A stretch of 64,000 nt of DNA from Candidatus Omnitrophota bacterium (lineage in GTDB: Bacteria > Omnitrophota > Gorgyraeia > 1-14-0-20-64-10): the NCBI GenBank assembly GCA_023818695.1, contig JAMWCF010000001.1:3538-67537 (forward strand), given 5' to 3'. A model generated the notes under the pieces. That model saw only the letters and a list, made by a program, of their open reading frames with translations. It searched no databases and was not told the DNA's origin. Made by a program: the position numbers and the translations under genes. Below, in pieces: positions 1,666 through 57,416 of the stretch. Positions within the stretch are counted from its first letter, which is position 1. Each line of letters starts with the position of its first letter.

Positions 1666-1678
1666 GGGGAGAGATCAG

Positions 1679-1700
1679 CTTACATAATCCTTACAATCGC
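1679..1700 (+). promoter_or_regulatory. Putative Pho box (CTTACAtaatcCTTACAatcgc) upstream of pstS
   Basis: Two CTTACA hexamers exactly 11 bp apart, 60-80 bp upstream of the pstS start; compare E. coli CTGTCATAAATCTGTCAC and B. subtilis TT(A/T/C)ACA repeats. Confidence 0.45.
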
Positions 1701-1763
1701 CAGACAGAACGCTGATTTGTAGACGGTAACTTTGTATATGAAAACAGGAGAAAAAGAGCAGAG

Positions 1764-2774: not shown

Positions 2775-2778
2775 TCCC

Positions 2779-3762
2779 ATGCAGTTAACCGAAACCCTCC
2801 CTCTTGGAAGAACGCAAGAAGGAGGGTTTGGTTTCTCGAAAAGCAAGGTGATGCCGAGTTTTCCCGTTTCTTCAAGACGAAACAGGCAGAAAGTCCGGGA
2901 AGAGGCGATCCGCGTGACGCTGGCTTCCTGCGGGTTTCTCTCGGTGCTGACGACCCTCGGGATCGTCGGCGTCCTCCTTTTTGAGACACTGGCCTTCTTC
3001 AGGGAGGTGTCCATCTTTAAATTCCTGACCGACACCCAGTGGACTCCCCTGTTTGCCGACAAACATTTCGGCATCTGGCCGCTGGTGGCGGGGACCTTCC
3101 TGACCGCCGCGGCGGCCATCGGGGTGGCCATGCCGGTGGGGATGTTGAGCGCCATCTATTTAAGTGAGTACGCTACCGACCGGTTCAGGAAGGTCGTGAA
3201 GCCGATTCTGGAGATCTTAGCCGGCATCCCGACGGTTGTTTACGGTTATTTCGCTCTCCTGTTCGTCACGCCCCTTCTTCAGAGACTGATCCCCGGGTTG
3301 TCCGGTTTCAACGCCTTGAGCCCCGGCATCGTGATGGGGATCATGATCATCCCGATGGTCTGCTCTTTGAGCGAGGATGCCATGTATGCGGTCCCCCAGA
3401 GTTTGCGGGAGGGGGCCTATGCCCTGGGTTCCTCCCGTCTGCAGGTCGCCTTGAAGGTGGTGGTGCCGGCCGCTTTTTCCGGCATCACCGCCTCCTTCCT
3501 GCTGGCGGTTTCCAGGGCGATCGGAGAGACGATGATCGTGGCGATCGCGGCGGGGCAGCAGCCGCGCTTGACCCTCAACCCGACCGTCCCGGTGGAGACG
3601 ATGACCGCCTACATTGTCCAGGTCAGTCTGGGAGACACGCCGACCGGCACGATCGAGTACAAGACGATTTTCGCGGTCGGCATGGCGTTGTTCCTCTGCA
3701 CGCTGACACTGAACCTTGTCAGCCAGTTCCTGCGGGAACGGTGTCAGGAACAGTACGAATGA
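2779..3762 (+). CDS. pstC: Phosphate ABC transporter permease PstC (start may instead be the ATG at 2851)
   Basis: Multi-TM permease with an EAA-like ABC permease loop; sits between pstS and pstA. Confidence 0.85.
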
Positions 3763-4643
3763 AACTGGAAGGGATGCATCTTCAGAGAATGCTCCGCGGC
3801 CAGAAAAGGTCGGAGCGGGTTTTCAAGATTGTTGCGGGTGGAGCGTTGCTTTTCGCGCTTGTCGCTTTGGCCATCCTGATTATCGACGTCTTCCTCGATG
3901 GCTTCCGCCGGCTGGACTGGCAGTTCCTGACCTCTTTTCCGTCCCGAAAGCCAGAGAGGGCAGGGGTTCTTTCCGCGCTGGTCGGCACGGTCTACATGAT
4001 GGGTTTGACCGCCCTCCTTGCTTTCCCGATCGGCGTCGGGGCGGCGATTTACCTGGAGGAGTATGCCCGTAAGAAAAACTGGTTCTCCCGGCTGATTGAG
4101 GTGAACATAGCGAACCTGGCCGGTGTCCCGTCTATCTTGTACGGTCTGCTGGGACTTGAGTTGTTTGTCCGGATGATGGGGTTGGGACGGTCGGTCCTGG
4201 CGGGGGCGCTCACGATGGCTCTCCTGGTCCTGCCGATCGTCATCATTGCCTCCAGGGAGGCGATCCGGGTCGTTTCTCCCGCCATCAAGGAAGGGTCTTT
4301 CGCGCTGGGGGCAAGCCGGTGGCAGACCATCTGGTACCAGGTCCTGCCGATCGCTTTCCCAGGGATACTGACCGGTTCGATCCTGGCTTTTTCCAGGGTG
4401 ATCGGGGAGGCGGCCCCCATGATCACGATCGGAGCTTTGGCCTTCATCGCTTTCCTTCCGGACAGTCCCTTGTCGCCGTTTACCGTCCTTCCGATCCAGA
4501 TTTTTAACTGGGTCTCCCGCCCGCAGAAAGGGTTCTTCACCTGCGCGGCGGCGGGAATCCTGATTCTGCTGGCTGTGTTGCTGATGATGAACGCGGCGGC
4601 CGTCTTTTTGAGGCAGCGATACCAGAAGAGGTTGTACCTATGA
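3759..4643 (+). CDS. pstA: Phosphate ABC transporter permease PstA
   Basis: ATG at 3759 overlaps the pstC stop (ATGA); six-TM permease; the track ORF 3741 starts 18 nt upstream on GTG. Confidence 0.85.
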
Positions 4644-5425
4644 GTCCGGTTGTGGAGCTTAAGGAAGAACAGCCGATCGCTTTCGGCATCCAGGATCTGA
4701 ATGCCTGGTATGGGTCTTTCCAGGCCCTCAAGAATATCAGCATGTCGATTCCGGAGAAGAGGATCACCGCCATCATTGGGCCCTCCGGCTGCGGAAAGAG
4801 CACTCTGATCAGGTGCCTGAACAGGATCAATGATTTGATCCCGGATTTTCGCCTGGAGGGGCAGATCTATTTCAAAGGGAAGGAGATCAACGACCCGTCG
4901 GTGGACCCGATCGAGGTTCGCCTGCGCATCGGCATGGTTTTCCAGAAGCCGAACCCGTTCCCGAAATCGATCTATGATAATATCGCCTATGGGCCCCGGT
5001 TGATCGGCGTCAAGAACGGCAGCCGCTTGGACGGCATCGTCGAAGAGAGTCTGAAGAAGGCGGCCATCTGGAACGAGGTGAAGGATAGTCTGCGCAAGAG
5101 TGCTCTGGCCCTCTCCGGTGGCCAGCAACAGCGATTGTGCATCGCCAGAACTCTGGCCGTTGACCCGGAAGTGCTCCTGCTGGATGAACCGTGCTCCGCG
5201 CTGGACCCGATCGCCACCGGCAAGATCGAGGAGTTGATTTACCGGCTCAAGGAGGAGTACACGGTGGCGATCGTTACGCATAATATGCAGCAGGCCGCTC
5301 GGGTCTCGAATTACACCGGTTTTCTGCTGATGGGGGAGCTGGTGGAGTTCGGACCGACGGAAAAGATTTTCACGAACCCGGCCGATTCTCGGACGGAAGA
5401 GTACATCACGGGACGGTTCGGCTGA
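4640..5425 (+). CDS. pstB: Phosphate import ATP-binding protein PstB
   Basis: Walker [13 protein letters not shown] signature LSGGQQQRL, Walker B LLLDEP; ATGA overlap with pstA. Confidence 0.92.
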
Positions 5426-6117
5426 TGGAAACCGAGGATGGAGGGGGAATTTCCATGTTGAGGCATTTTGACGCGGAGCTGCAGGAGCTCAAGGGACAGA
5501 CTTTGACGATGGCCGGCATGGCCGAGCAGGCGGTCGGCCGGGCGATGAGCGCCCTCGTCGAGAGGGACGCCCCCCTGGCGGAAAAGGTGATCGAGGAGGA
5601 CGCGGCTGTCAACCGGCTGGAGGTCGACATCGAGGAAAAGTGCCTCTCCCTTCTGGCCCGCTACCAGCCGGAGGCGAAGGATCTGCGGACGATTGCGATG
5701 ATCTTCAAGATCGTCAACGACTTGGAAAGGGTTGGCGACCAGGGGGTCAACATCGCCGAGCGGACGCTGGATCTGCTGAAGTACCCTCTGCTGAAGCCGC
5801 TGATTGATCTGCCCCGGATGGCGGTCCTCGCCCAAAGGATGCTCAAGGATTCCCTGGATGCTTTCGTCAACGCCAATCCGGAGCTGGCGAGGGAAGTCTG
5901 CCGCCGGGATTCGGAGGTGGACCATCTCAACGACCAGGTCTATCACGAACTGCTTGTCTACATGACGCAGGATCCAAAGACGATCACCCGCGCGCTCGAC
6001 CTGATTTTGATCGGCCGGTCGCTGGAGCGGGTCGCGGATCACGCCACCAACATCGCCGAAGACGTTTATTACCTCGTCAAAGGGACCACCATCAAACACC
6101 GGCTCGCCGGCGTCTGA
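5425..6117 (+). CDS. phoU: Phosphate signalling complex protein PhoU (alternative start 5455)
   Basis: Two PhoU repeats (FDAELQELK... and ...RVADHATNIAE); TGATG overlap with pstB. Confidence 0.88.
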   Translation: METEDGGGISMLRHFDAELQELKGQTLTMAGMAEQAVGRAMSALVERDAPLAEKVIEEDAAVNRLEVDIEEKCLSLLARYQPEAKDLRTIAMIFKIVNDLERVGDQGVNIAERTLDLLKYPLLKPLIDLPRMAVLAQRMLKDSLDAFVNANPELAREVCRRDSEVDHLNDQVYHELLVYMTQDPKTITRALDLILIGRSLERVADHATNIAEDVYYLVKGTTIKHRLAGV

Positions 6118-6199
6118 CGCGCGGGTGTCCGGCCGGTTTCCTTCCCGTTTGGGGCCCGGCCCCCTCTTGGTGTATCATGGATTTCAGAGGAGAATGCCG

Positions 6200-6556
6200 A
6201 TGAGAACAATCCCCATTCTTTTTTCTGCCGTTGTGTTCTGCCAGATCATCCAGGCGCCCTCCGTTCACGGAATGGGCAAGGAACCCGAGGCGGCGCCCGC
6301 CCAGTTTTCCGCGCGGGGCCGGACCGTCGAGGTTGTCCCGGAGGGAAACTCCGAGTGGGTGGTGACCCTTCAGACCGGCGGGCACGAATCCCTGTCGCTG
6401 CGCTGTTCGGCACAGTTGACGACTGTCATGCAGGGAGGAATCCACCTGCATCCCTCCGAGCTTCGTAAGGGGGATTGGCTGCAGGTGGAAGGGGAGTTGC
6501 TCGGCGGCAAGCGGATTGCCAGGAGGATCTGGATTGAGCTCCCTCCCGCTGAATAA
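6200..6556 (+). CDS. Small secreted hypothetical protein (signal peptide MRTIPILFSAVVFCQIIQAPSVHG)
   Basis: AGAGGAGA RBS 6 nt upstream of ATG 6200; cleavable signal peptide; no recognisable domain; 3' end overlaps the next gene. Confidence 0.4.
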   Translation: MRTIPILFSAVVFCQIIQAPSVHGMGKEPEAAPAQFSARGRTVEVVPEGNSEWVVTLQTGGHESLSLRCSAQLTTVMQGGIHLHPSELRKGDWLQVEGELLGGKRIARRIWIELPPAE

Positions 6557-7745
6557 AGCGGCGGTTCTTCTGGCGCTCGGGTTGGCGGCGGGGATTTTTT
6601 TGCCATCGGTGGGAGATGCCGGGCCGGCGTCCGACCCGCCGTTGGGATTGTGGATCACCTGCCTGGATCCCGAAAGCCCTTTGAATAACCCGGGCCAGGT
6701 TGAGAAACTGGTTTCTTTCGCCGAGCAGGGAAAATTCAAGATCCTCTTCGTCCAGGTTTACCGGGCGGACAAGGCCTGGTTTCTCTCGGAGACAGCGGAT
6801 TCCTCTCCGTACCTGGAGGCCAGGGAAAAAGCCGGCGGGATCGATCCCCTGCAGGAGCTGATCGATCGGGCCCATGGGAAAGGGATCGAGGTCCACGCTT
6901 GGATCAACACCCTGACCCTCTCCAGGAATTTTCAATCCGCCTTCCTGAAGGAATCCGGCGATGAGATTCTAACGAAGGACCAGTACGGCAACAGCGCTGT
7001 CAAGAACGAGGAGGCCTTGGAGGCGCCGTACCGGTATTACGAGCAGGAAAACCAGCTGTTTTTGGAGCCGGGTGATCCCAGGGTAAAGGAGCGGGTCCTG
7101 CGCGTCGTGGCGGAGCTGATCCGCGCCTATCCGACGCTGGACGGGATTCACTTCGACTACATCCGTTACCCGGCGGCGCCCCCGTTTATTCCGGGCTCCC
7201 GCTTCAACGCCGTCGGACTGTCCTACGGCTACGGGGAGCGCAATGTCGAGCGTTTCCGCCAAGCGCACGGCTTCGATCCACACGATGTTCGGGGACAGGC
7301 GGACAAGGCACTGCTGTGGGACCGGTGGAAAAGGGAGCAAATCACCGAGCTGTTGAGGGAGTGCTCCCGGCAGATCAAGGCGTCGGACCCCTCCAAGCAG
7401 GTTTCCTGCGCGGTGGTCCCATCGTTCGACCGGGCCTATCATGCGGCCGGGCAGGATTGGGGAAAATGGCTTGAGGAGAATATCATCGATTTCGCCGTTT
7501 TGATGAACTACTCCGTGGATCACAGAGCCGTGTGGCTGGGTTCCAGGGCCGCCGTCGGGATCGCCGGGGATCCCCGGCGGATCGCCATCGGCTTGGGCGC
7601 TTATCTTCTGGAGAAGGACCCCACGGCCTTCCAAGAACAGATTGACGCCAGCCGCCGTTTGGGTCCCCGAGCGGTTGTCCTCTTCGATTATTCGGCCGCC
7701 TCCCGACTTTCCACTGCGAAATCGGTTTCGATGGATGAGGAGTAA
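6534..7745 (+). CDS. Putative glycoside-hydrolase-like TIM-barrel lipoprotein/secreted protein (YddW / family-10-like)
   Basis: TTG start with AGGAGGA RBS; signal peptide; FKILFVQVYRADKAWF...GIEVHAWINT resembles the YddW/GHL10 family (recalled from memory, not searched). Confidence 0.5.
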   Translation: MSSLPLNKAAVLLALGLAAGIFLPSVGDAGPASDPPLGLWITCLDPESPLNNPGQVEKLVSFAEQGKFKILFVQVYRADKAWFLSETADSSPYLEAREKAGGIDPLQELIDRAHGKGIEVHAWINTLTLSRNFQSAFLKESGDEILTKDQYGNSAVKNEEALEAPYRYYEQENQLFLEPGDPRVKERVLRVVAELIRAYPTLDGIHFDYIRYPAAPPFIPGSRFNAVGLSYGYGERNVERFRQAHGFDPHDVRGQADKALLWDRWKREQITELLRECSRQIKASDPSKQVSCAVVPSFDRAYHAAGQDWGKWLEENIIDFAVLMNYSVDHRAVWLGSRAAVGIAGDPRRIAIGLGAYLLEKDPTAFQEQIDASRRLGPRAVVLFDYSAASRLSTAKSVSMDEE

Positions 7746-24108: not shown

Positions 24109-24137
24109 TTGACGAAGAGACCGCAGCGTCTTATAAT
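24109..24137 (+). promoter_or_regulatory. Consensus sigma-70/SigA-type promoter for hisG: TTGACG-N17-TATAAT
   Basis: -35 TTGACG (24109-24114), 17-nt spacer, -10 TATAAT (24132-24137); AT-rich UP-like region upstream containing ATATATTAAT direct repeats. Confidence 0.5.
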
Positions 24138-24224
24138 CCCTTTCCTGCGGTTTTACTTTTCTATCCTAATGGGTTGAGTCTCCCTAAACATGGGGGATGC
24201 GAACAAGAGCGGAGGTTCCAAAGC

Positions 24225-45446: not shown

Positions 45447-47150
45447 ATGAATCTCCGAATCGCTCTTGCGCAGATCAACGTGACGGTCGGCGACTTCCCC
45501 GGCAATGAGGCGAAGATAACGGAATCCTTTGCCGAGGCCCGGAGGAAAGGAGCCGATCTGGTTGTCTTTCCGGAGCTGGCTGTCACCGGCTATCCGCCCG
45601 AAGACCTCCTTTTCAAAAAGGCGTTCGTTCGGGCCGGTCTCCGGGCCGCAGACCGGCTGGTGAAGCGGTGCGACAAGGGCGTCGGTTTCATCGGTTTCGT
45701 TGATGAGGACGCGGGCGGCCGGATCTACAACGCGGCGGCAGTCTGTTTCAAAGGGACATGGGTCGGCCGGCACCGGAAGATGGAGCTGCCCAATTACGGG
45801 GTTTTCGATGAAAAGAGATATTTCACGCCGGGGTCGGCCCCTTTCCTGGCGGATTGCGTTGTCGACCCGAAACATGCCGTCCGGATCGGTGTTTCCGTCT
45901 GCGAAGACATCTGGGTGGACGGGGGGCCGACCCGCATTCAAGCGCAAAAAAGGTGCCGCATTCTGGTCAACCTGTCCGCCTCTCCCTACCATACCGGCAA
46001 GCGGCTGTCGAGAGAGCGGATGCTGATCCGCAGAGCGCGGGAGTGCACATGCTGGATTGTATACCTGAATCTCGTCGGGGGACAGGACGAGCTGGTTTTT
46101 GACGGCGGGTCGATGGTGGTCAACCCGTCAGGGAAGGTTGTCTTCCGCGCCCCCCAATTTGAGGAAGGGGTTTTCCTGACCGAGATTTCAGTTTCGCCGA
46201 CGGCGGTCCCACCTTCCCGGGAGATCCCGCAGTTGAAGCTTGGCCGGCGGCGCGGCGCCGGCCGCGCGGTGTTGAATCGCTCCGCCAAAGTCTTGGAGCC
46301 GGATGAGGAGATCTTCAAGGCGCTGGTCCTGGGGTTGAAGGATTACGTCCATAAGAATGGTTTTTCCCATGTCGTCGTGGGTTTGAGCGGCGGCATCGAT
46401 TCGGCCGTGACGGCTGCCATTGCCGTGGCCGCCCTGGGGAACCACTCGGTGACAGGGGTCTCCATGCCGTCCCGGTACTCCTCGGCGGAAACGAAGCAGG
46501 ACGCCCATGCTGTGGCCGCGTCGCTGGGGATCCAGTTCCTGGAGATCCCCATCGAAGGGATGTTGCAGGCCTCCCTGCGGAGTCTGGAGCCGGTCTTCAT
46601 GGGGCTTGAACCGAACGTCACGGAGGAGAACATCCAGGCGCGCCTGCGGGGGATGCTCCTGATGGCGCTGTCCAACAAATTCGGCTGGCTTGTACTGGCC
46701 ACAGGGAATAAATCGGAGATCTCCACCGGCTACTGCACCCTTTACGGGGACATGGTGGGCGGTTTCGCCGTCATCAAGGATGTTCCGAAGACCTGGGTTT
46801 ACCGGGTCGGCCGTTTCGCCAACAGGCATTTCGGCCGAGCCGTCATCCCGGAGTCGACGTTCAAAAGAGTCCCCACGGCCGAACTGAAGCCCGGCCAGAA
46901 AGATCAGGATATTCTGCCGCCGTACAGCCGTCTGGATTCGGTGATCCGCGCTTACGTGGAGGAGAACAAGCCGATCCAGGAAATCCGGCGGACATCGGGG
47001 TTGTCGAAGAAGGCCCTGGAGTCGGTGATTCAGATGATCGATCGGTCTGAGTACAAGCGTCGGCAAGCCCCTCTGGGGATCAAGATCACCCCGAGGGCTT
47101 ACGGCCGGGATAGAAGGATGCCTTTGACCAGTCAATTCAGGGAGTTCTGA
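45447..47150 (+). CDS. nadE: Glutamine-dependent NAD+ synthetase
   Basis: N-terminal CN-hydrolase domain plus C-terminal NAD synthetase domain with SGGIDS PP-loop. Confidence 0.9.
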   Translation: MNLRIALAQINVTVGDFPGNEAKITESFAEARRKGADLVVFPELAVTGYPPEDLLFKKAFVRAGLRAADRLVKRCDKGVGFIGFVDEDAGGRIYNAAAVCFKGTWVGRHRKMELPNYGVFDEKRYFTPGSAPFLADCVVDPKHAVRIGVSVCEDIWVDGGPTRIQAQKRCRILVNLSASPYHTGKRLSRERMLIRRARECTCWIVYLNLVGGQDELVFDGGSMVVNPSGKVVFRAPQFEEGVFLTEISVSPTAVPPSREIPQLKLGRRRGAGRAVLNRSAKVLEPDEEIFKALVLGLKDYVHKNGFSHVVVGLSGGIDSAVTAAIAVAALGNHSVTGVSMPSRYSSAETKQDAHAVAASLGIQFLEIPIEGMLQASLRSLEPVFMGLEPNVTEENIQARLRGMLLMALSNKFGWLVLATGNKSEISTGYCTLYGDMVGGFAVIKDVPKTWVYRVGRFANRHFGRAVIPESTFKRVPTAELKPGQKDQDILPPYSRLDSVIRAYVEENKPIQEIRRTSGLSKKALESVIQMIDRSEYKRRQAPLGIKITPRAYGRDRRMPLTSQFREF

Positions 47151-47827
47151 TGGAGTCGCTGCTTTTGATCGAATCGAACGGATCCTCCTTAAAGCAGGTG
47201 AAGTCCCAGTTCGTTCGCTCCGGGTTCCGTGTCGTTGTCTGCGATGCGGCCGGCCTGGAGCGTTTGGACGCGGGTAAGGAGAGGTTCCTTCTGATCGTGG
47301 CGGATGGCACCGATTCCTCCCGCCTGGCGGGAACCGTCGCGCAGGTCCGGTCCAAGCCCTTCCTGAAGGAGATTGGCCTGGTTCTACTGATCAAAGAATC
47401 ACAAATGAAGGAGCTGGGGCAGCTGACAGGGGTGGAGGATTTCCTGATCCTTCCGTGCGACCCGTCCATGGTGGAGTCGAGGGTTCGGTTTGTTCTCAAG
47501 CGGATGAACCGCTCCGCACCGGGTGAAGAGGGAATCCAGGTCGGCAAGCTGAAACTGGACATCGACCGTTACGAGGTGACACTGGACGGGGAGCCGCTGG
47601 AGCTGACCTACAAGGAATTCGAGCTCTTGAAATTTCTGGCGACCCACCCCGGCAAGGTTTTCAGCAGAGACCAGCTCTTAAACCAGGTTTGGGGCTATGA
47701 TTTCATCGGAGGGACCCGGACCGTGGATGTTCACATCCGCCGATTGAGGGCCAAGCTCGGTCCGAAATACGCTTCCTTAATAGATACCGTCCGGAACGTT
47801 GGCTACAAGTTCCTCGAAAATCTTTAA
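47150..47827 (+). CDS. Orphan OmpR-family response regulator with degenerate receiver domain (atypical, probably phosphorylation-independent)
   Basis: C-terminal winged helix LTYKEFELLKFLATHPGKVFSRDQLLNQVWGYDFIGGTRTVDVHIRRLRAKL; receiver lacks the N-terminal acidic DD pair (LLLIESNGSS) and the conserved Lys (DFLILPCDP); start overlaps the nadE stop; no histidine kinase nearby. Confidence 0.8.
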   Translation: MESLLLIESNGSSLKQVKSQFVRSGFRVVVCDAAGLERLDAGKERFLLIVADGTDSSRLAGTVAQVRSKPFLKEIGLVLLIKESQMKELGQLTGVEDFLILPCDPSMVESRVRFVLKRMNRSAPGEEGIQVGKLKLDIDRYEVTLDGEPLELTYKEFELLKFLATHPGKVFSRDQLLNQVWGYDFIGGTRTVDVHIRRLRAKLGPKYASLIDTVRNVGYKFLENL

Positions 47828-47829
47828 CC

Positions 47830-47893
47830 GTTTACACGGATTTAACATTTCTGATATTTTCGCGTAACCTTCCTCCTTAAACTGCACCAAAAC
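47830..47893 (+). promoter_or_regulatory. Array of helically phased (T/A)AAC direct repeats upstream of the porin-amt-glnK operon; contains GGATTTAACAT shared with the glnA upstream region
   Basis: gTTTACacggaTTTAACat...cGTAACc...TAAAC...AAAAC with hexamer ends at 47835/47846/47868/47882/47893 (mostly 11-bp multiples); adjacent TGCACCAaaacGGTTCA resembles an NtrC dyad. Confidence 0.35.
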
Positions 47894-47959
47894 GGTTCAA
47901 GCTTCTTTTCTTTGAGCACAGAACAGCAGGATTTCAAATTTAAGGAGGGCAGCTCCCCG

Positions 47960-49228
47960 ATGATCTTTGTGGTTCGAAGGTTCGTTTTTATGTCTTTGGC
48001 GACGGCGGTTGGTTTTTTCGCCTTTCCCGTGAGCCCGTCTGTGGCTGACGAAACAGCCGATCTCATGCAGGAGATCAAAGAGTTGAAGTCCCGCCTGGCA
48101 TCTCTGGAGAGCCGGTTGGCCAAGCAGGAGGCCAAGCCGTCTTCCGCTGCGGCCCTGAGCGCCGTGTCCGATTCGGACGTTCCGTCCTGGGTCAGGAAGG
48201 TTGATATCAGTGGTTTCGTGGATGTGTCCTATGTTTACAACTTCGATGAGCCAAAAACCACTGGTGCCAACGGTCTGCGTGTTTTTGACACCGAGCCAAA
48301 CGGTTTCCAGCCCAATGCCTTCGAGTTGGTCGTCCAGAAGCCGGTTTCCACCGACTCGCCAGTCGGCTTCCGGGCCGATCTGGATGTCGGCGAGGATGCC
48401 GAGATCGTGGGGTCGGTGACAACCGGTTTGGGGTCGACAACCGATGAAATCGATCTTCAGCAGGCCTATGTGGAGGCGCTGGTGCCTGTCGGCAGCGGGT
48501 TGAACGTGAAGGCGGGGAAATTTGTGACGCTCCACGGGGCGGAGGTCATCGAATCGAAGGACAACTGGAATTTTTCGAGGTCCTATCTCTTCGGCTACGC
48601 TATTCCCTTTACGCACACGGGTGTCCGGTTGAGCTACCCGCTTACGTCGTGGTTGACCACGACGGCCGGCGTGAGCAATGGCTGGGATGTAGTGGATGAC
48701 AACAACACCGGCAAGACGCTTGAATGGATGCTGGCGGCAACGCCGACCGCGAAAACCTCCCTCTGCGCTACTGTCATGTATGGCCCGGAGCAGACCAATG
48801 ATAACCATGACGACCGGTTTCTGCTGGATGTCGTTCTCGGCTACAACCCCTGTGAGAGATTGTCATTGAAGCTGAACTATGACTATGGGCAGGAGCATGA
48901 CGCGACAATTGAAGACCTGGAGGACGCCAGCTGGCACGGGGTGGCCGGCTACGCCCGGTACCAATTCAACGACTGGTACGCCCTGGCCCTGCGCAGCGAG
49001 TATTTCGTCGATTACGACGGCATCCGGACCGGGGTTCGCGCCGCCAACGGGGTGGGAGACGTTGGTTTGTGGGAATTAACCGTCACAAACGAATTCAAGC
49101 TGTATAAAGATCTCATCACCCGGCTGGAGTACCGTCACGATCACGCCACCAACTCGGTTTTCGCTTCCGGCGGCGGTACCGACAACACGCAAGATACGAT
49201 CAGTCTGGAAGCGATCTATCCGTTCTGA
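47960..49228 (+). CDS. Outer-membrane porin with N-terminal coiled-coil, upstream of amt
   Basis: AAGGAGGG RBS; signal peptide MIFVVRRFVFMSLATAVGFFAFPVSPSVA; coiled-coil; beta-rich body ending ...LEAIYPF (C-terminal Phe). Confidence 0.55.
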   Translation: MIFVVRRFVFMSLATAVGFFAFPVSPSVADETADLMQEIKELKSRLASLESRLAKQEAKPSSAAALSAVSDSDVPSWVRKVDISGFVDVSYVYNFDEPKTTGANGLRVFDTEPNGFQPNAFELVVQKPVSTDSPVGFRADLDVGEDAEIVGSVTTGLGSTTDEIDLQQAYVEALVPVGSGLNVKAGKFVTLHGAEVIESKDNWNFSRSYLFGYAIPFTHTGVRLSYPLTSWLTTTAGVSNGWDVVDDNNTGKTLEWMLAATPTAKTSLCATVMYGPEQTNDNHDDRFLLDVVLGYNPCERLSLKLNYDYGQEHDATIEDLEDASWHGVAGYARYQFNDWYALALRSEYFVDYDGIRTGVRAANGVGDVGLWELTVTNEFKLYKDLITRLEYRHDHATNSVFASGGGTDNTQDTISLEAIYPF

Positions 49229-49290
49229 ATTTTTGATTCGAAGGGTAACAGCGATAGAATGAGTCACATGACGAAGGGAGGATTTTTGAA

Positions 49291-50664
49291 ATGGAATGGA
49301 AAGTAGCGGCAGACACCCTCTGGGTGTTGATAACGGCGATGCTGGTCTTCTGGATGAATGCCGGCTTCGCGACGGTGGAAGCCGGTTTTCAGGCGCAGAA
49401 GAACTGCGTCAATATCTTGTCCAAGAACTTCGTTGTTTTTGCTATTGCGTCGATCGCTTATTGGTGGGTTGGTTTCGGCCTGCAGTTCGGGGATGGCAAC
49501 GGCTGGGTCGGGATGCAGGGGTTGTTTTCTCTTCGCGGAGCCGATAATTCGCCGGCGACCGGGGATGCTTATAAGGGTGTCTACAGCTCCTTGAGCTGGA
49601 CCGGCGTTCCTCTGCTGGCGAAATTCTTTTTCCAGCTGGTTTTCTGCGGGACGGCGGCGACCATCGTTTCAGGAGCGGTCGGAGGCAGGATCAAGTATTT
49701 TTCGTTCCTTGTTTTCTCCTTCTTCCTCTGCGCGCTGGTTTATCCGATCGTCGGACACTGGATCTGGGGCGGAGGATGGCTGGCGAAGGCCGGTTTCTGG
49801 GATTTCGCCGGCTCAACGGTTGTTCACTCGGTCGGCGGCTGGGGTGCCCTCGCGGGGGCTCTTCTGCTAGGGCCCCGCTTCGGCAAATACAGCCCCACCG
49901 GTTCCATCATGCCGACGCCGGGCCATAATCTGTCGCTGGCCACGATAGGAACCTTCATCCTGTGGCTTGGCTGGTTCGGGTTCAATCCTGGATCAACCAT
50001 GGCGGCGGATCCGAGCGCCATCGCCCGGATCTGCGTGACGACCAACTCCGCCGCGATTGCCGGGATCCTGGGAGCCACTTTGACCTCCTGGATCACGCTG
50101 GGCAAGCCGGACCTGGGCATGACCTTGAACGGCTGTCTGGCCGGGCTGGTCGGCATCACGGCGCCGTGCGCCTTTGTCAGCGTGGAGAGTTCGCTGATCA
50201 TTGGCTTCATCGCGGGTGTTCTGGTCGTGCTGGCTGTCCCGATCTTTGACCGGCTGCGGATCGACGACCCGGTCGGCGCCACCTCGGTCCACCTCGTCAA
50301 TGGGATCTGGGGGACCCTGGCGGTCGGTCTTTTCGCGCAGGATTCGATCATGCCGAATACCACCGGAAACGGCCTGTTTTTCGGGGGAGGCACCAAGCTC
50401 CTGGCCGCCCAGGCGACCGGTGTTTTCGCCGTTGGGGTGTTCACGTTCGTGACCTGCGCGATCGTGTGGGCTCTGATCAAGGTGACGATGGGAATCCGAG
50501 TCGCTCTCCATGAGGAGATCTCCGGTCTGGATGTCGGCGAGCACGGCAACTCGGCCTATCCGGAGTTCGTGATCCGCAAGCCCTCTTATTCCTATGCGAG
50601 CATCGTGGCCCGTCCCGCGGAATACAGCGAGACGCCGGTTTCTGTGAATGGAGGCAAGAAATGA
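49291..50664 (+). CDS. amt: Ammonium transporter (Amt family)
   Basis: 11-TM Amt/MEP protein with signature stretches such as GAVGGRIKYFSF and FGFNPGS. Confidence 0.92.
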   Translation: MEWKVAADTLWVLITAMLVFWMNAGFATVEAGFQAQKNCVNILSKNFVVFAIASIAYWWVGFGLQFGDGNGWVGMQGLFSLRGADNSPATGDAYKGVYSSLSWTGVPLLAKFFFQLVFCGTAATIVSGAVGGRIKYFSFLVFSFFLCALVYPIVGHWIWGGGWLAKAGFWDFAGSTVVHSVGGWGALAGALLLGPRFGKYSPTGSIMPTPGHNLSLATIGTFILWLGWFGFNPGSTMAADPSAIARICVTTNSAAIAGILGATLTSWITLGKPDLGMTLNGCLAGLVGITAPCAFVSVESSLIIGFIAGVLVVLAVPIFDRLRIDDPVGATSVHLVNGIWGTLAVGLFAQDSIMPNTTGNGLFFGGGTKLLAAQATGVFAVGVFTFVTCAIVWALIKVTMGIRVALHEEISGLDVGEHGNSAYPEFVIRKPSYSYASIVARPAEYSETPVSVNGGKK

Positions 50665-50999
50665 AGAAGATTGAAGCGATCATCCGCCCGGAGAAGGTCG
50701 ATGAGGTGCGCCGGGCTCTGGAAAAAGTCGGATTTCCCGGTCTTCACATCGGCGAAGTGGAGGGGCACGGGAAGCAGAAGGGAGTCGTCCAGCAGTGGCG
50801 CGGCGAGCAGTACCGGGTGGAACTGCTTTCCAAGGTGAAGCTGGAGATTGTGGCCAACGACAAGGACGCCTCGAAGATCGTCCAGGCCATCCAGGACGCC
50901 GCCAAAACCGGCGGCGTGGGGGACGGGAAGATTTTCATCTCGCCGGTCGAAGAGGTGATCCGGATCCGGACCGGGGAGAGGGGGGATTCCGCCCTTTAA
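50661..50999 (+). CDS. glnK: Nitrogen regulatory protein P-II (GlnK type, linked to amt)
   Basis: MKKIEAIIRPEKVDEVRRAL...T-loop RGEQYRVELL with the conserved Tyr; overlaps the amt stop. Confidence 0.9.
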   Translation: MKKIEAIIRPEKVDEVRRALEKVGFPGLHIGEVEGHGKQKGVVQQWRGEQYRVELLSKVKLEIVANDKDASKIVQAIQDAAKTGGVGDGKIFISPVEEVIRIRTGERGDSAL

Positions 51000-51024
51000 A
51001 AAGGGGCGCCCGGCTGGGCAGGGC

Positions 51025-51063
51025 CTTAACCGGGATTTAACATCCCCGTAATATTGTTGTAAC
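51025..51063 (+). promoter_or_regulatory. Four consecutive 11-bp-phased direct repeats (CTTAAC / TTTAAC / CGTAAT / TGTAAC) upstream of glnA
   Basis: Hexamer ends at 51030, 51041, 51052 and 51063; includes GGATTTAACAT, identical to the 11-mer upstream of the porin-amt operon. Confidence 0.4.
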
Positions 51064-51253
51064 GGCCGGAAATTAAGCTAGAATAGTCAATATTCCGGGC
51101 TGGGGAACCCCACCCCTCCTGTTTCTGCACGGTTGGACACAGTTCTTCCAAAGGGCCGTTTTTCCCTTGTAGAGAAATCGGGCCGAGTGTCTTGATTCGA
51201 ATCAGTTTTTGAGGTGGATTTTGAAAAAGCGAAAGAAGGAGAAACGAAAAGCC

Positions 51254-52795
51254 ATGGCACGAGGGACCACAGCAGCTAAAACACGGGGCAAGGCGTCATT
51301 GAATGGGCGGGGGAGCCAGTCCGAAAAGACGTTCCCCATCGCGGCCGTTGCCAACGAGCCGCCGAAAGCGGATGAAGCGGCTGTCCGCCGGTTATGGAAG
51401 ATTATTAAGGAGAATAACATCCAGGTCGTGGACCTGAAGTTCAACGACCTGCCCGGGCTGTGGCAGCATTTTTCCATCCCGGTCTCCGAGTTGAGCGAGA
51501 ACCCCAGAGAGGGGATCTGGGTCGACGGGATTGGGTTCGACGGGTCGTCGATCCGCGGTTTCCAGAAGATCCAGGAATCGGACATGAACCTGTATGCCGA
51601 CCCGAGCACGGCGATCCTGGACCCGGTTTGCGAGGCGCCGACCTTGAGCATGATCTGCGACATCTATGATCCGTTGACGAAGAAGCCCTACACCCGGGAC
51701 CCCCGCTACATCGCCAGGAAGGCCGAAGCGTACCTGAAGAAAACCGGCATCGCCGACATCAGCTACTGGGGTCCGGAACCGGAATTCTTCATCTTCGATG
51801 ACATCCGGTTCGATTCGACGGAAAACTCCAGCTACTACTTCGTCGATTCCATCGAAGGAGAGTGGAACTCCGGCCGGGACGAGAAGCCAAACCTCGGCTA
51901 CAAGCCCCGCTTCAAGGAAGGGTACTTCCCGGTGCCGCCTCACGATGTCTTTCAGGACATCCGCAGCGAGATCATGAAGAAGGCCCGGGAGGCCGGCGTC
52001 CCCGTGGAGAAGCATCACCATGAGGTGGCCACGGCCGGTCAGGCGGAGATCGACATGCGCTACGGCACCCTCACCCAGATGGCGGACTGGCTGATGACGC
52101 TCAAATACGTCGTCAAGAACGTCGCCCGCAAGCACGGCAAGGTGGCCACCTACATGCCCAAGCCGCTCTTCGGCGACAACGGATCCGGCATGCACACCCA
52201 CCAGAGTCTCGCGAAAGAGGGGACCAACCTGTTCTACGACAAGAACGGCTACGCCCTGATCAGCCAGACCTGCAAGTGGTACATCGGCGGGCTGCTTAAG
52301 CATGCCCCGGCAATCCTGGCCTTCGCGGCTCCCGGCACCAACTCTTACAAGCGGTTGGTCCCCGGCTACGAGGCGCCTGTGAACTTGGCCTACTCGGCCC
52401 GGAACCGGTCGGCGATCTGCCGCATCCCGGTTTACACGCCGCACCCGAAAAGCAAGAGGGTGGAGTTCCGCGCCCCCGACCCCTCCTGCAACCCGTACAT
52501 CACGTTCGCGGCGCTGCTTATGGCGGGGCTGGATGGCATCCAGAACCGGATCGATCCGGGACAGCCGGTGGATGAGAACATCTACGAGATGCCGGCGGAC
52601 AAGGCGCCCAAGCAGGTGCCCGGTTCGCTGGAGGAGGCGCTTGACGCCCTCGAGAGGGACCACGCGTTCCTGCTCAAGGGAGACGTCTTCACCAAGGACG
52701 TCATCGAGGTGTGGCTGGAGTACAAGCGGCAGGAGATTGACAAAGTCCGGCTCCGACCGCATCCGTACGAGTTCTACCTGTACTTCGACGCCTAA
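51254..52795 (+). CDS. glnA: Glutamine synthetase type I-beta (E. coli-like, with adenylylation-region Tyr) carrying a ~40-aa basic N-terminal extension
   Basis: Near-collinear with E. coli GlnA (…[16 protein letters not shown]…[14 protein letters not shown]…NIYEMPAD…); first in-frame ATG is 51254, ~40 codons upstream of the position aligning with E. coli Met1. Confidence 0.88.
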
Positions 52796-52829
52796 GAGTC
52801 AAGGTTCCTTGTCAAAGTGATTCAAGCGA

Positions 52830-52865
52830 CGCCCGGGCCGCCACGCGCGCCCGGGCGTTTGCTTG
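52830..52865 (+). terminator. Rho-independent terminator after glnA (CGCCCGGGC-loop-GCCCGGGCG followed by TTTGCTTG)
   Basis: 9-bp GC-rich inverted repeat at 52830-52838 and 52849-52857, then a T-rich tract. Confidence 0.5.
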
Positions 52866-52879
52866 TCGAGTGAGAGCCA

Positions 52880-54217
52880 ATGCCCGCTATTGAGCTGAAA
52901 GACAAAGAATACGTCCTGAAATCGGCCCGCGACCTCGGGGTCAAGTTCATCCGGTTGTGGTTCACCGACATCCTCGGGTTCCTGAAGAACGTGGCGATCA
53001 CCATCGAGGAACTGGAGGAGGCCCTGGAGGAAGGGGTCGGTTTCGACGGTTCCTCCATCGAGGGGTTCACCCGGTCCGAGGAGTCCGACATGGTGGCTTT
53101 GCCGGATCCGAACACCTTCGCGGTTTTGCCCTGGAGGCCGAAAGCCAACGCCGTTGCCCGAATGTTCTGCGACATCGTGCGCCCTGGCGGGGAACCGTTT
53201 GAAGGGGATCCCCGCTACGTTTTGAAGCAGAATCTGAAGAAGGCGGCCGAGTTGGGCTACACCTTTTACGTCGGGCCGGAGCTGGAGCATTTCTATTTCA
53301 AGTCGGCCGAGGAGCCGATCCCCTTGGATGCCGGCGGCTATTTCGACCTGACCCCGCTGGATCTGGCTTCCAACCTGCGGCGTGAAACGATCCTGGCGCT
53401 GGAGGAGCTGGGGATCGGCGTCGAGTTCAGCCACCATGAGGTGGCCCCCTCCCAGCATGAGATCGATTTCCGGTACGCCGACGCCCTGACGATGGCGGAC
53501 AACGTGATGACCTACCGGCTCGTCACCAAGGAGATCGCCCTGGAGCACGGGGTCTACGCCACTTTCATGCCGAAGCCGATGGCCGGGCAGAACGGTTCCG
53601 GCATGCATGTGAACATCTCCCTCTTTAAAGGGGAGAGGAACGCCTTCTTCGATCCGAACGATCCGGCCCATCTGTCCGGAGTGGCTAAGAGCTTTCTTGC
53701 CGGGATCCTCAAGCATGTCAGGGAGTTCACCGTGGTCACCAACCAGTGGGTGAATTCCTACAAGCGGCTGACCCCCGGTTATGAGGCGCCGGCTTATGTC
53801 ACCTGGGCTTTAACGAACCGGGCCGATCTGGTGCGTGTCCCCAGGGCTAAACCAGGTAAAGAAGAGGCCTGCCGAATTGAACTGCGGTCTCCTGACCCGG
53901 CTTGCAACCCGTACCTGGCTTTCAGCGCCATCTTGGCGGCCGGACTGGATGGTATCCGGAAGAAAGAATCTCTTCCGCCTGAAGCGCAAACTAACGTGGC
54001 CTCCCTCTCCCCCGCGGAGAGGTCCCAAAAGGGGATCCAGGCCCTTCCCAGAGATCTGGGAGAGGCGATTGAAGCGGCCAGCGGCTCGGCGCTTCTGAAA
54101 TCGGCGTTGGGCGACCACATCTACAGTTCCTTCCTGCGCAACAAGCAGATGGAATGGGAAAAATACTGCTCTGCCGTCACCGATTTTGACCTGAAGACCT
54201 ACTTACCGTTGCTGTAA
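52880..54217 (+). CDS. glnA: Glutamine synthetase type I-alpha (B. subtilis-like, 445 aa)
   Basis: MPAIELKDKEYVLKSARDLGVKFIRLWFTDILG... short GSI-alpha architecture lacking the 25-aa insertion. Confidence 0.9.
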   Translation: MPAIELKDKEYVLKSARDLGVKFIRLWFTDILGFLKNVAITIEELEEALEEGVGFDGSSIEGFTRSEESDMVALPDPNTFAVLPWRPKANAVARMFCDIVRPGGEPFEGDPRYVLKQNLKKAAELGYTFYVGPELEHFYFKSAEEPIPLDAGGYFDLTPLDLASNLRRETILALEELGIGVEFSHHEVAPSQHEIDFRYADALTMADNVMTYRLVTKEIALEHGVYATFMPKPMAGQNGSGMHVNISLFKGERNAFFDPNDPAHLSGVAKSFLAGILKHVREFTVVTNQWVNSYKRLTPGYEAPAYVTWALTNRADLVRVPRAKPGKEEACRIELRSPDPACNPYLAFSAILAAGLDGIRKKESLPPEAQTNVASLSPAERSQKGIQALPRDLGEAIEAASGSALLKSALGDHIYSSFLRNKQMEWEKYCSAVTDFDLKTYLPLL

Positions 54218-54500
54218 TAAATAGTAAAAGCTTATCGAACGCATATTCTCCTTCTCCCGATTTCGATGGTCTTTGGTAATGCACCCCTGTCGGCAAGCCG
54301 GTTCAAACGCAGATCGATCCGGTGCAGGAGGCGTCCGCCATCCTGGCCAAAAATCTCAATAATGTATCTCCTGCGAATGCAGCGCCTTCCATAGTAGTTA
54401 ATAGGAATTAAATCTAATATAAGGCCTTGCCAAATCAGGTTTAGTTAAGGTAAACTTGACCTCACCATTGAGGAAACACCATTTCCTGCCGGTTCTTACG

Positions 54501-57416
54501 ATGAGATCTATAACAGTTTTCAAGAGAAGCATTGCCTTTTTCGCGGCGATCTCGCTGGGATTGCCAGGGACCTCCTTTGCCTTGAGGCCGGTCAGCCCTG
54601 TGGAGTCAGGCGTCCAGGATCAGCTGGTCCTCTCCCTGTCTGCTGGCCTGGAGGAAGAGAAGGATTTGGGCCTGCGCAGGCGGGTCGATGTCGGCGGACA
54701 GGTGGTGGTCTGGAGCTTCAACCAGGAACAGCCCCCTCAGATCGTCCGGATTCGGTTGGCGGAAGTCAAAGGAATGAAGAGAGGTGCCATCGAGTTCCAG
54801 GGGCCTCCGACAGTCTTGATCTTCCGTCAAAAGCTGTGGGACCAGATTACGCGCGAGGTCACAGAGAGGGGCGGTTTCAATTCCGGCGGCGGCAGGGGCC
54901 ATCTGCAAACATTCGTCAAGGAGGTGGAGGAGGGGAAATGGCTCAAGTTGAATTTCAAGGCGGAAAAGGATTATCGGAGCAAGGGCACTTACCCGCCCGG
55001 TGAACGGGGGGAGGGGGTCATCCTGTACGATCTGACCTCCAACCGGGAGATTGCGCGGGTCTTCCTCCGGGCCGTCGCGTCGAACAGTTCAGCCGAACTT
55101 CGGCTCGTCGCCCCGAAGGACGTTAAGCTGGATGATGAAGCGACTTATCTCTCCAAACTGGCCGACCTGGCGGCGCGGCCGATCCCGTACGATGAGGCGA
55201 TCCTTATCGATGACAGCGCTCTCGTCCCCGTCCGCCTGTTCGCCGATACCTCCGGCGGCGCGCCGAACAGCTTTGTGCCCGTCCCGTCCCAAGGGGTTTT
55301 CATCCCCTCTACTTACCTGGAAGAGTGGAGGGGGCGGGGTTTCTTCATCCTTAACCGCCAGGGGAATGGGCAGCGTTTCCTGCACGTCGTGCTTGGTAAT
55401 AAAGCCCATTTCCCGAACGTCAACACGGTTTTCATGCAGGCGGGAGCCGATCCTGTCGCGGCTCGGTTGAGTTTGTCCAGGTCAAGCCGGACCGAAGACG
55501 GATTCACTGTGGAGGTGACGCCGCAGGGAGTGACAATCCGGCCCGGATCAGGACAGCAGATACTGGTTGAAAGGTCATTCATTCCCTTTGAGATGAACCT
55601 GCGGTCCCTTTTCGAAGATGCCGGGGTCGCTCTGGAAATGCAGCGATGGAGCACGTTGAGCAATCTTCTGACCCGCGTCTCCCGCCTGCAAAAGCCGGAA
55701 CGTGCCCGGCAGACGACCTTCGTCCGAAGGCAGTTGGATACGCTGGAGATCATGCGGATGCAGATGCTGTTGAGCCGCCGCTTGCCTTCCGTCTGGATCG
55801 TCGGCAATCCCTTGTCCAGATCGGCTGAAAACGATTACTGGGCCGCGCTGGCGGCCGGATCTCGGCTTTTGAACCAGCAGCCGCCGCCTCACCAGGAAAC
55901 GGTCCGGATGGTCAGAACGATGATCGCGCAGGCGGTTTTGACATTAAGCGCGGCCGGCTCCCTGGCGCAGCGCACGCGGATTGATCAGATCATGACCAAC
56001 CCGGACGTTCCCCGGGGCCATGTCTACGCCCTGTTCCGGGAAAGATGGCTTGCCCGCGTCCTCCGGGAGCAGGAAAGGGGTCGGCTTGAGCTGCCGAATG
56101 AGTTTTATACCCGCGCCCTGGCCTATGCCCTCATGCAGGTCATGAGCCCCGCGGATCAGTTTTTGAGCCCAGCCGACCGCCTGGACGCGCCGGATGCCCT
56201 GCTGACCTTTTTGCAGGGAGGGGTACCGGCCGATCACCTCGAATCGGCGCGCCAGCGCCACATGGTTCGGAGAATCGTGACAAAGGAGTTGTGGAATGTG
56301 GAGCAGAGCAGGCCGGGACAGATGCCAGAGGATATGATGGAAGAGGTGCTGATGCCTTACGACATCACGATTTTGGAGGCAGCCGCCATCGCCGCACGCG
56401 TTTTGTCTCGTGTGGCGGAGGAGATGGGACACGCTGGAGACGCGGCGAAATTCCGGCAGCTCTCCGAGGAGATTCAGGAACAGCTGCGGGGGCGGGTTTC
56501 CGGCAGGATGCCGCGCCGGCTGGATATGGTGAACGTGGTCCGGGGACCGGTCCAGATTCTTGCGGACAACCTGAGAGAAGAGCAGGAGGTCATCGAAACG
56601 CTGCACGGCCACATGAAGCGTTTACTGGAGGAAGTCACGGAGGAACCGCGCCTCGATCCGGGCTGGGTCCGGTTCTACAACGAGGCGACAGGCAGCAACT
56701 ACTGGATTGAGCTGGGGCCGCCGGATGAATGGCAGGAGCGTTTCGGCCAGGAGGGGGATCTCATGGAGTCGGCCCTCTGGGCGATTTCCGCCGGTGCGGC
56801 AGGCCGGTCCTTCCGGGTGCAGGTCCGGACTTACAGGGAGCGGCATCACAGCAGGTGGGTTCAGGTCCTTGTGCCGGAGGTGACCTATGGTCCCCCCCTG
56901 CCTGATCAGCCCGAGCGCCTGGTGATGCCTTCCGCCGGTCTGGAGGGGACTCTTCCTTTTCGAGCGGTGGACGCGGAGGAATTCGCCCGGAACCTGCCGT
57001 CCCGCTACAGGGATTCCATCCCCGGCGTTTTCAGCAGGGTCTGGGTCGTTCCATTGCCAGCCCGCGTGAATGTTTATTCCCAGGAACCGCTTCTACAGGG
57101 CCTGGAGCGGGATTTCATCGGCAAGCTGCCGGCGGATTTGGCGGCGGCCGTTCGGCTCGTACGGGTCCCTCTGGCGCCGACGGAGTCGTACGAAAAACCC
57201 GGCGTGATTGTAGAAGACGCGGGTCTGGATCTCTCGGTTGATAATCCCCTGAATCTTCCGGTTCTGAAGCTGTGGCTGGCCGACCTGGCCCGCATCAATC
57301 CGGCAGCCGTCATTATGCTGGCCCTGGGTGGCTATCAGGATCCGAATGTGCAGCTTCTGGGGTTGATGACCTACCAGGACGCGCAAGGGCAGACCTTCCT
57401 CGCCATCTTCGCGTAA
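54501..57416 (+). CDS. Large secreted hypothetical protein (~970 aa), no recognisable domain
   Basis: Signal peptide MRSITVFKRSIAFFAAISLGLPGTSFA; beta-rich N-terminal third, helix-rich Arg/Leu/Glu-rich remainder; the track ORF begins at TTG 54456. Confidence 0.55.
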   Translation: MRSITVFKRSIAFFAAISLGLPGTSFALRPVSPVESGVQDQLVLSLSAGLEEEKDLGLRRRVDVGGQVVVWSFNQEQPPQIVRIRLAEVKGMKRGAIEFQGPPTVLIFRQKLWDQITREVTERGGFNSGGGRGHLQTFVKEVEEGKWLKLNFKAEKDYRSKGTYPPGERGEGVILYDLTSNREIARVFLRAVASNSSAELRLVAPKDVKLDDEATYLSKLADLAARPIPYDEAILIDDSALVPVRLFADTSGGAPNSFVPVPSQGVFIPSTYLEEWRGRGFFILNRQGNGQRFLHVVLGNKAHFPNVNTVFMQAGADPVAARLSLSRSSRTEDGFTVEVTPQGVTIRPGSGQQILVERSFIPFEMNLRSLFEDAGVALEMQRWSTLSNLLTRVSRLQKPERARQTTFVRRQLDTLEIMRMQMLLSRRLPSVWIVGNPLSRSAENDYWAALAAGSRLLNQQPPPHQETVRMVRTMIAQAVLTLSAAGSLAQRTRIDQIMTNPDVPRGHVYALFRERWLARVLREQERGRLELPNEFYTRALAYALMQVMSPADQFLSPADRLDAPDALLTFLQGGVPADHLESARQRHMVRRIVTKELWNVEQSRPGQMPEDMMEEVLMPYDITILEAAAIAARVLSRVAEEMGHAGDAAKFRQLSEEIQEQLRGRVSGRMPRRLDMVNVVRGPVQILADNLREEQEVIETLHGHMKRLLEEVTEEPRLDPGWVRFYNEATGSNYWIELGPPDEWQERFGQEGDLMESALWAISAGAAGRSFRVQVRTYRERHHSRWVQVLVPEVTYGPPLPDQPERLVMPSAGLEGTLPFRAVDAEEFARNLPSRYRDSIPGVFSRVWVVPLPARVNVYSQEPLLQGLERDFIGKLPADLAAAVRLVRVPLAPTESYEKPGVIVEDAGLDLSVDNPLNLPVLKLWLADLARINPAAVIMLALGGYQDPNVQLLGLMTYQDAQGQTFLAIFA

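Follow-up and report, generated by a model that had tools for sequence, protein, structure and literature searches.

Two phased four-site arrays upstream of porin-amt-glnK and glnA as probable operators of a GlnR-type nitrogen regulon in a Candidatus Omnitrophota bacterium

Two arrays of four direct repeats, one upstream of glnA and the other upstream of a porin-amt-glnK operon, were analyzed in the window, a stretch of 64,000 nucleotides from a Candidatus Omnitrophota bacterium. Judged by sequence, position and conservation, these two tetrads are probably the operators of a nitrogen regulon of the GlnR type. The literature consulted presents OmpR-type GlnR as the master regulator of nitrogen metabolism in Actinomycetes, and the system in the window is an extension of that known system rather than a new mechanism. 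Literature searches for an OmpR-type GlnR in Omnitrophica/Omnitrophota, Chloroflexi, Dehalococcoides, Armatimonadetes or otherwise outside the actinobacteria found none; their coverage was incomplete and an earlier description may exist.

The glnA-proximal tetrad occupies 51025-51063 on the forward strand and consists of the hexamers CTTAAC (51025-51030), TTTAAC (51036-51041), CGTAAT (51047-51052) and TGTAAC (51058-51063). An earlier note on this DNA had described four 11-bp-phased hexamers at this place. Its coordinates are exact: the four units all conform to xKTAAY and their ends are 11 bp apart with no deviation in phase. The same note had linked the array to the porin-amt upstream region through a shared 11-mer, and GGATTTAACAT indeed occurs in exactly two copies in the 64-kb window, at 47838-47848 and 51033-51043. 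The recurrence therefore stood, but the 11-mer alone is weak evidence for the link because at least two matches appeared in 10 of 100 shuffles when one mismatch was allowed. Overlooked by the note was a complete second tetrad at 47830-47868, also on the forward strand, made up of GTTTAC (47830-47835), TTTAAC (47841-47846), TGATAT (47852-47857) and CGTAAC (47863-47868). Its hexamer ends fall at 47835, 47846, 47857 and 47868, it aligns with the glnA tetrad without gaps, and it starts 3 nt after the stop codon of a regulator gene. Three further candidate sites in the window (54186-54240, 54385-54450 and 24124-24189) were dropped because they scored 8 bits or less with an independent matrix.

The phased repeats might in principle be a chance or structural feature of AT-rich intergenic DNA, such as curved DNA or an UP-like element, that has no dedicated regulator. 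Both tetrads do lie in locally AT-rich intergenic DNA, and the shared 11-mer is not significant by itself. Against this, four TAAY motifs at 11-bp phase occurred once in the window and not at all in 100 first-order Markov simulations. With a matrix of the glnA hexamers, the porin tetrad was the top independent match over both strands (128 kb) at 19.5 bits, compared with a simulation maximum of 18.5. The reverse test with the porin-tetrad matrix returned the glnA tetrad as its top match at 28.7 bits, the simulation maximum being 20.2. A 44-column matrix was then trained on 10 tetrads, all of them from other genomes and none from the window. It gave 42.8 bits for the porin tetrad and 40.7 bits for the glnA tetrad, while the next best score in the window was 8.1 bits and 100 simulated windows peaked at 12.7 bits. 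This matrix thus recognizes two tetrads in 64 kb and no others, upstream of porin-amt-glnK and of glnA. Over the 80 homologue loci listed (1.16 Mb, mostly with actinobacterial GlnR), the tetrad matrix reached 24 bits or more in a single locus, that of a Dehalococcoidales metagenome-assembled genome (MAG; L044), indicating a low false-positive rate. Scores of 40-43 bits from a matrix trained elsewhere, set against a simulation maximum of 12.7, speak strongly against a chance or structural origin, as do the position-specific conservation of the repeats across regulators of 48-69% identity and in another phylum, and their fixed distance to a predicted -10 element. We regard such an origin as exceedingly improbable and effectively refuted.

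Conservation was examined by tracing homologues of the regulator with 48-69% identity to ten contigs (L081-L090). The tetrad is kept in five related Omnitrophota loci and in the Dehalococcoidales MAG, where it lies upstream of amtB-glnK, and the regulator gene is usually adjacent. Orthologues of the glnA tetrad are present in L084, L085, L086 and L090, and those of the porin/amt tetrad in these four, in L083 and in L044. In L044 the homologous regulator gene is followed by GGTAAC/TTTAAC/TGTAAT/GGTAAC, then by 10 nt, TAAAAT and amtB-glnK. The GlnR-like gene of L044 is itself directly preceded by an ORF (39-359) with regulatory domains of NrpR, a family of nitrogen repressors of archaeal type. 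A second matrix, built from the eight units of the window only, scored 25 bits or more in the related loci solely upstream of the porin gene and of glnA, where every match had the sense orientation. No match of 17 bits or more was found with it in five related loci that lack porin/amt/glnA genes. Within this clade, the tetrads are associated exclusively with nitrogen genes.

A site-by-site comparison of 12 tetrads from 7 genomes showed KTWAC-like units separated by 6-nt spacers, all in the sense direction and all upstream of glnA or porin/amt. The consensus is (C)GTAAC at site 1, an invariant (G)ATTTAAC at site 2, (C)GTnAT at site 3 and KTAAC at site 4. Site 3 is the most degenerate, although its last position is T in 11 of the 12 tetrads, and A occupies pentamer position 4 in 48 of 48 units. 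The earlier note had read the 11-bp phasing as the geometry of tandem-binding winged-helix regulators, a view that this conservation of four direct repeats supports. Its further suggestion of a shared regulon operator agrees with the presence of just two tetrads in 64 kb, in front of porin-amt-glnK and glnA, and with the same arrangement in the relatives. A point against the GlnR-type reading is that no recognizable tetrad was found at an Armatimonadota homologue that adjoins glnA (L009). Two Acidimicrobiales loci, where glnA is directly upstream of glnR, have dyads only, of the GTGAAC/GTTAAC type. One shows GTTAAC-n5-GTGAAT, repeated twice, upstream of glnA (L067, 1138-1185) and the other a GTGAAC-n5-GTGAAC dyad in the same place (L080, 1455-1476); both are probably classical actinobacterial GlnR boxes.

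The genes around the tetrads are arranged in the order lpxC-fabZ, lpxI, nadE, regulator, first tetrad, BBP2 porin, amt, glnK, second tetrad, glnA, a glutamine synthetase (GS)-like gene and an ORF of 986 aa. Immediately upstream of the regulator gene, on the same strand, is nadE (45447-47150), encoding a glutamine-dependent NAD synthetase with Pfam CN_hydrolase and NAD_synthase domains. The start codon of the regulator gene overlaps the stop codon of nadE and the two are probably co-transcribed. This contact recurs in 10 of 10 related loci, where nadE either abuts the regulator gene or overlaps it and the pair closes a conserved bamA-ompH-lpxD-lpxC/fabZ-lpxI cluster. The lpx-nadE-regulator operon has no tetrad in front of it, and the regulator is therefore not apparently autoregulated here.

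The first predicted target operon (47912-50999, forward strand) comprises, by Pfam, the BBP2 porin gene (from 47912 or 47961 to 49228), amt (49291-50664) and glnK for a P-II protein (50661-50999). The second (51254-54217, forward strand) comprises, by Pfam and NCBIfam, a type I glutamine synthetase gene (ORF 51209-52795, with an ATG at 51254; TIGR00653, 652 bits) and the second GS-like gene (52880-54217). The synteny of both operons is kept in L084, L085, L086 and L090, where the whole porin-amt-glnK-glnA-glnA2 block directly follows the regulator gene; in L083 the block lies at a distance. In the type I enzyme, the beta-grasp domain is preceded by about 50 additional N-terminal residues, the Pfam match beginning at ORF residue 70, and the enzymes of the same four relatives are of similar length (496-516 aa). 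The 986-aa ORF downstream of both GS genes (54456-57416) has no Pfam or NCBIfam match; unannotated ORFs of 975 aa in L084 and 589 aa in L085 occupy the same place. An Rfam scan of 47000-55000 at E ≤ 1 returned nothing, which argues against a glutamine riboswitch or another known RNA in this region. An attenuator or riboswitch in the glnA leader was likewise dropped as a candidate, since 51090-51254 folds like its shuffles (z 0.48) and the leaders of the relatives cannot be aligned.

The regulator gene at 47150-47827 (forward strand) encodes a GlnR-type orphan response regulator of 225 aa, with a degenerate receiver and a winged-helix domain of the OmpR/PhoB type. The protein matches MCM8811477.1, which comes from a Candidatus Omnitrophota MAG, at 100% identity and has Trans_reg_C as its only Pfam match. 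In a phmmer search of the PDB, it matched the GlnR entries 8hig, 8hih and 8hml with 153, 151 and 135 bits (E 1e-44 to 1e-38), ahead of RegX3 with 97 bits (1e-26) and MtrA with 92 bits. A profile search of genome contigs identified actinobacterial GlnR as its best relatives outside the Omnitrophota among the matches listed. An AF2 model of the protein has a pLDDT of 87, and its top Foldseek matches are the GlnR chains 8hih_N and 8hih_P. These comparisons place the regulator closer to GlnR than to other OmpR-family regulators.

The residues that contact DNA in GlnR are known from the transcription activation complex of M. tuberculosis GlnR (8HIH) and from the DNA-binding domain of S. erythraea GlnR on GTAAC DNA (8HML) (PMC10235972). 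In S. erythraea numbering, bases are contacted by R186, V190, R193 and R194, and the phosphate backbone by 12 residues that include T149, K151, R169, W177, T187, H191, R196, T209, R211, N212 and Y215 (PMC10235972). All 4 base-contacting and all 12 phosphate-contacting residues are identical in the window regulator (numbering +4), whose DNA-binding domain is 64% identical overall to that of actinobacterial GlnR. They are also identical in the homologues from L044 (Dehalococcoidia), L009 (Armatimonadota) and L033, whereas canonical regulators differ from GlnR at R193.

The N-terminal domain does not have the conserved acidic pair (DD), the Thr/Ser or the Lys of phosphorylatable receivers, and none of the canonical receiver positions is invariant among 17 relatives. 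Its profile nevertheless aligned end-to-end with the GlnR receiver in hhalign (probability 95.9%, E 5.7e-9). In this alignment D52 corresponds to GlnR D50, while the partners of Asp50 are not kept, R52 aligning with T54 and T9 with E8. The Pfam family GlnR_1st scored 12.9 bits on the window regulator, below its threshold of 27; among the 17 relatives it was matched at E ≤ 1 by 11 (best E 1.3e-05), compared with 2 for Response_reg. This divergence of the receiver counts against a GlnR-type reading. No histidine kinase gene (HisKA/HATPase) was found beside the regulator gene in 10 of 10 loci, the neighbors being nadE upstream and porin or unrelated genes downstream.

We propose that four copies of this adjacent orphan, phosphorylation-independent regulator would bind each tetrad head-to-tail, one per 11-bp unit, with each recognition helix reading a (G/T)TAAC-like pentamer. 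At the porin-amt-glnK promoter, a predicted -10 element, TAAACT, lies at 47878-47883 on the forward strand, 9 nt after site 4. In the orthologous porin/amt promoters, 7 of 7 have a TAnnnT that follows site 4 at a distance of 9-10 nt. Among the metagenome matches listed (see below), the same spacing was seen in 8 of 8 porin, 6 of 7 amt and 9 of 10 mini winged-helix (mini-wHTH) promoters. This distance puts site 4 in the predicted spacer and site 3 over the -35 position, so that the array would take the place of a -35 element. When nitrogen is limiting, the four-protomer complex would most likely activate porin-amt-glnK. We infer the binding, its stoichiometry, the activation and the signal sensed, and the activation in particular because the predicted geometry of the array matches that seen in the structure of the GlnR transcription activation complex.

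At glnA, how the regulator acts and in which direction are less certain because the gap between the array and the best -10 candidate is 5-6 bp longer. This difference in register from the porin array is conserved (51064-51084 compared with 47869-47883, and in the relatives): among the Omnitrophota glnA regions, TA(G/T)nnn follows site 4 at a distance of 15 nt in 5 of 5. In the window, a consensus scan found a promoter-like pair at 51057-51084 on the forward strand (9/12 matches), in which TTGTAA (51057-51062) and TAGAAT (51079-51084) are separated by 16 nt. The assignment of this pair is uncertain because the hexamers are poor in relatives. It raises the alternative that the regulator binds the tetrads but mainly represses, at glnA if not elsewhere, by covering the -35 region. 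Site 4 of the glnA array, TGTAAC, does overlap the -35-like TTGTAA, the array is about 6 bp off the activation geometry of the porin promoters, and actinobacterial GlnR is known to repress some targets, such as gdhA. On the other hand, the -35 and -10 candidates at the glnA genes of the relatives are poor (TATGCG, TAGTGG and TATCCG), which suggests activator-dependent promoters. In addition, glnA is an activated target of GlnR in Actinobacteria, and the glnA of another lineage (L126) has the 10-nt activation spacing. Mainly repressive binding is unlikely in our estimate, and activation of nitrogen assimilation genes, with less certainty at glnA, is the reading we prefer.

The distribution of the motif beyond the clade was surveyed by scanning metagenome contigs for the pattern KTWAY-N4-ATTTAAC-N6-GWNAT-N6-KTAAC, from which a sample of at least 80 loci was drawn, with 84 matches on re-scan. 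Of the matches listed, 77 had 300 nt or more of downstream sequence and could be assessed. Porin/amt/glnK/glnA operons follow 30 of these 77, so nitrogen genes are strongly enriched among the matches listed; enrichment near such genes had been named in the earlier note as a check on the motif. The remaining assessable matches listed precede PstS or phosphate-porin genes (9/77), TonB-dependent barrels (7/77), a conserved 63-aa ORF (7/77), canonical response regulators (4/77), or other single classes (3/77: a histidine kinase, a Porin_4 porin and a cut mini-wHTH); 17/77 could not be classified. A GlnR-like gene lies directly upstream of 12 of the matches listed, namely 11 nitrogen loci and L111, an amt-type locus that ends with its contig, and upstream of 0 in all other classes. 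The earlier note had suggested the adjacent atypical response regulator as the putative binder. The sequence-level evidence points the same way, in the GlnR matches in the PDB, in the identical contact residues and in these 12 listed metagenome loci.

The scan also revealed several gene classes associated with the pattern. A mini winged-helix protein of 105-121 aa that consists of Trans_reg_C only is encoded in nine loci. It is about 40% identical to the DNA-binding domain of the window regulator, and the GlnR base-contact residues are not conserved in it. Its gene is immediately upstream of the BBP2 porin gene, followed by amt and glnK where the contig extends, and in two loci (L112 and L134) a GlnR-like gene is directly upstream of it. 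A tetrad precedes the mini winged-helix gene in 9 of 9 loci, and a second one precedes the porin gene in three of them (L096, L132 and L169). In the seven loci with the 63-aa ORF, the tetrad is followed by 10 nt, TAAGCT and the ORF, whose Cys-rich product (MSQRRRERDQNFLVQCSWCGSKIRDDKKEETNAVCLKCFY...) has no Pfam match and may be a small target of the tetrad-binding regulator. In seven further loci the tetrad is followed by genes for TonB-dependent OMP_b-brl_4 / CarboxypepD_reg proteins of 1000-1600 aa.

The motif alone does not name its regulator because other lineages carry this degenerate pattern in front of pstS and of phosphate-porin genes, and the motif class overlaps with the Pho boxes of those lineages. 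The tetrads could accordingly be Pho boxes, or dual N/P boxes, of a canonical phosphorylated regulator of the PhoB/SphR type encoded elsewhere, in which case phosphate status would control nitrogen uptake, either alone or in competition with the GlnR-like protein. The identical pattern before PstS-type, Porin_O_P and Response_reg + Trans_reg_C genes in other metagenome lineages fits such an arrangement, and of the 4 base-contact residues, canonical regulators at such sites retain 3. In cyanobacteria, Pho boxes take the form of CTTAACCT repeats with an 11-bp period (PMC1906773), and E. coli PhoB, too, has its last repeat some 10 bp ahead of the -10 element. PhoP and GlnR, moreover, compete at the actinobacterial (Streptomyces) amtB. 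Within this genome, however, the possibility is weakened because the window holds a complete Porin_5-pstS-pstC-pstA-pstB-phoU operon (361-6117) that has no tetrad and whose matrix scores are below background. The restriction of the tetrads to nitrogen genes within the clade argues in the same direction, as does the fact that GlnR-like genes flank 12 nitrogen-class but 0 phosphate-class matches among those listed. We consider control by a PhoB/SphR-type regulator very unlikely and retain the GlnR-type protein as the putative reader of both tetrads.

The pst operon is itself preceded by 11-bp-phased repeats of a CTTAC type (CTTTAC/ACTTAC/CATCAT at 19-46), and similar repeats lie just before pstS (GCTTAC/CCTTAC/CCAGAC at 1678-1706). 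They differ from the nitrogen tetrad and may represent the Pho box of this genome. Several long ORFs on the minus strand (4049-6739) were rejected as antisense artefacts of pstA-pstB-phoU.

If the two tetrads are GlnR-type operators, an uncultured diderm candidate phylum would share with the Actinobacteria the GlnR regulator, the logic of a four-site operator and the core targets glnA and amt-glnK. The tetrad would then be a ready predictive motif for nitrogen regulons in MAGs of Omnitrophota and Dehalococcoidia. The variant found here, with its ATTTAAC b1 site and divergent receiver, would also provide natural material for probing the assembly of GlnR tetramers without phosphorylation. A broader view, to which we give slightly better than even credence, is that four-protomer activation by GlnR underlies a widely distributed nitrogen regulon in Omnitrophota, Dehalococcoidia and further lineages, marked by a conserved tetrad that centers on ATTTAAC and is spaced 10 nt from the -10 element. 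This would be the first cis-regulatory code and the first nitrogen master regulator assigned to Omnitrophota. Additions made by individual lineages would then include the mini winged-helix paralogue with its own tetrad, the 63-aa Cys-rich target and an overlap of the operators with Pho boxes, a hint of N/P cross-talk in an ancestor.

The closest known system is that of actinobacterial GlnR. Its boxes at glnA and amtB consist of a1-b1-a2-b2 sites (gTnAc/GaAAc) with 6-nt spacers that are bound by four protomers head-to-tail. Of the four repeats the second varies least, and no other base can replace the A at pentamer position 4; a2 is dispensable and overlaps the -35 element, and b2 lies downstream of it. 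By sequence, the tetrads described here appear to reproduce these features. Upstream of glnA and of an amt-glnK operon, the coding strand carries four direct 5-bp sites spaced by 6 nt, with an invariant A at position 4. Conservation is highest in the second repeat and lowest in the third (a2), and the proximal site would fall between the -35 position and the predicted -10 element at the porin/amt promoters. The window regulator, like GlnR of S. coelicolor, M. tuberculosis, S. erythraea and A. mediterranei, is an orphan, and its atypical receiver appears to keep the equivalent of Asp50 (D52). There are also differences. The host is a Candidatus Omnitrophota bacterium, with relatives of the system in Dehalococcoidales rather than in Actinobacteria, and the b1 site is ATTTAAC (TTAAC) instead of GaAAC. 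The window regulator does not share Arg52 and Thr9 of the receiver network, and its match to GlnR_1st stays below threshold. The regulator gene is joined to an lpx-nadE operon, the first target gene encodes an outer-membrane porin, and the glnA array has a different register relative to the -10 element.

The Pho boxes of PhoB/SphR (CTGTCATA in E. coli and the cyanobacterial repeats given above) resemble the tetrads in being direct repeats of 11 bp read by tandem winged-helix proteins, with the last repeat roughly 10 bp before the -10 element in place of a -35 element, and the TTAAC core is close to the cyanobacterial box. PhoB, however, belongs to the canonical, phosphorylated regulators, has a partner kinase and acts on pst/pho targets, whereas the window regulator has neither phospho-acceptor chemistry nor a kinase and its predicted targets are nitrogen genes. 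GlnR/TnrA of Firmicutes shares the name and the physiological role in the control of glnA, but these proteins belong to the MerR family and have an unrelated fold. Their operator is the palindrome TGTNAN7TNACA, in contrast to the direct repeats that lie beside an OmpR-type regulator in the window.
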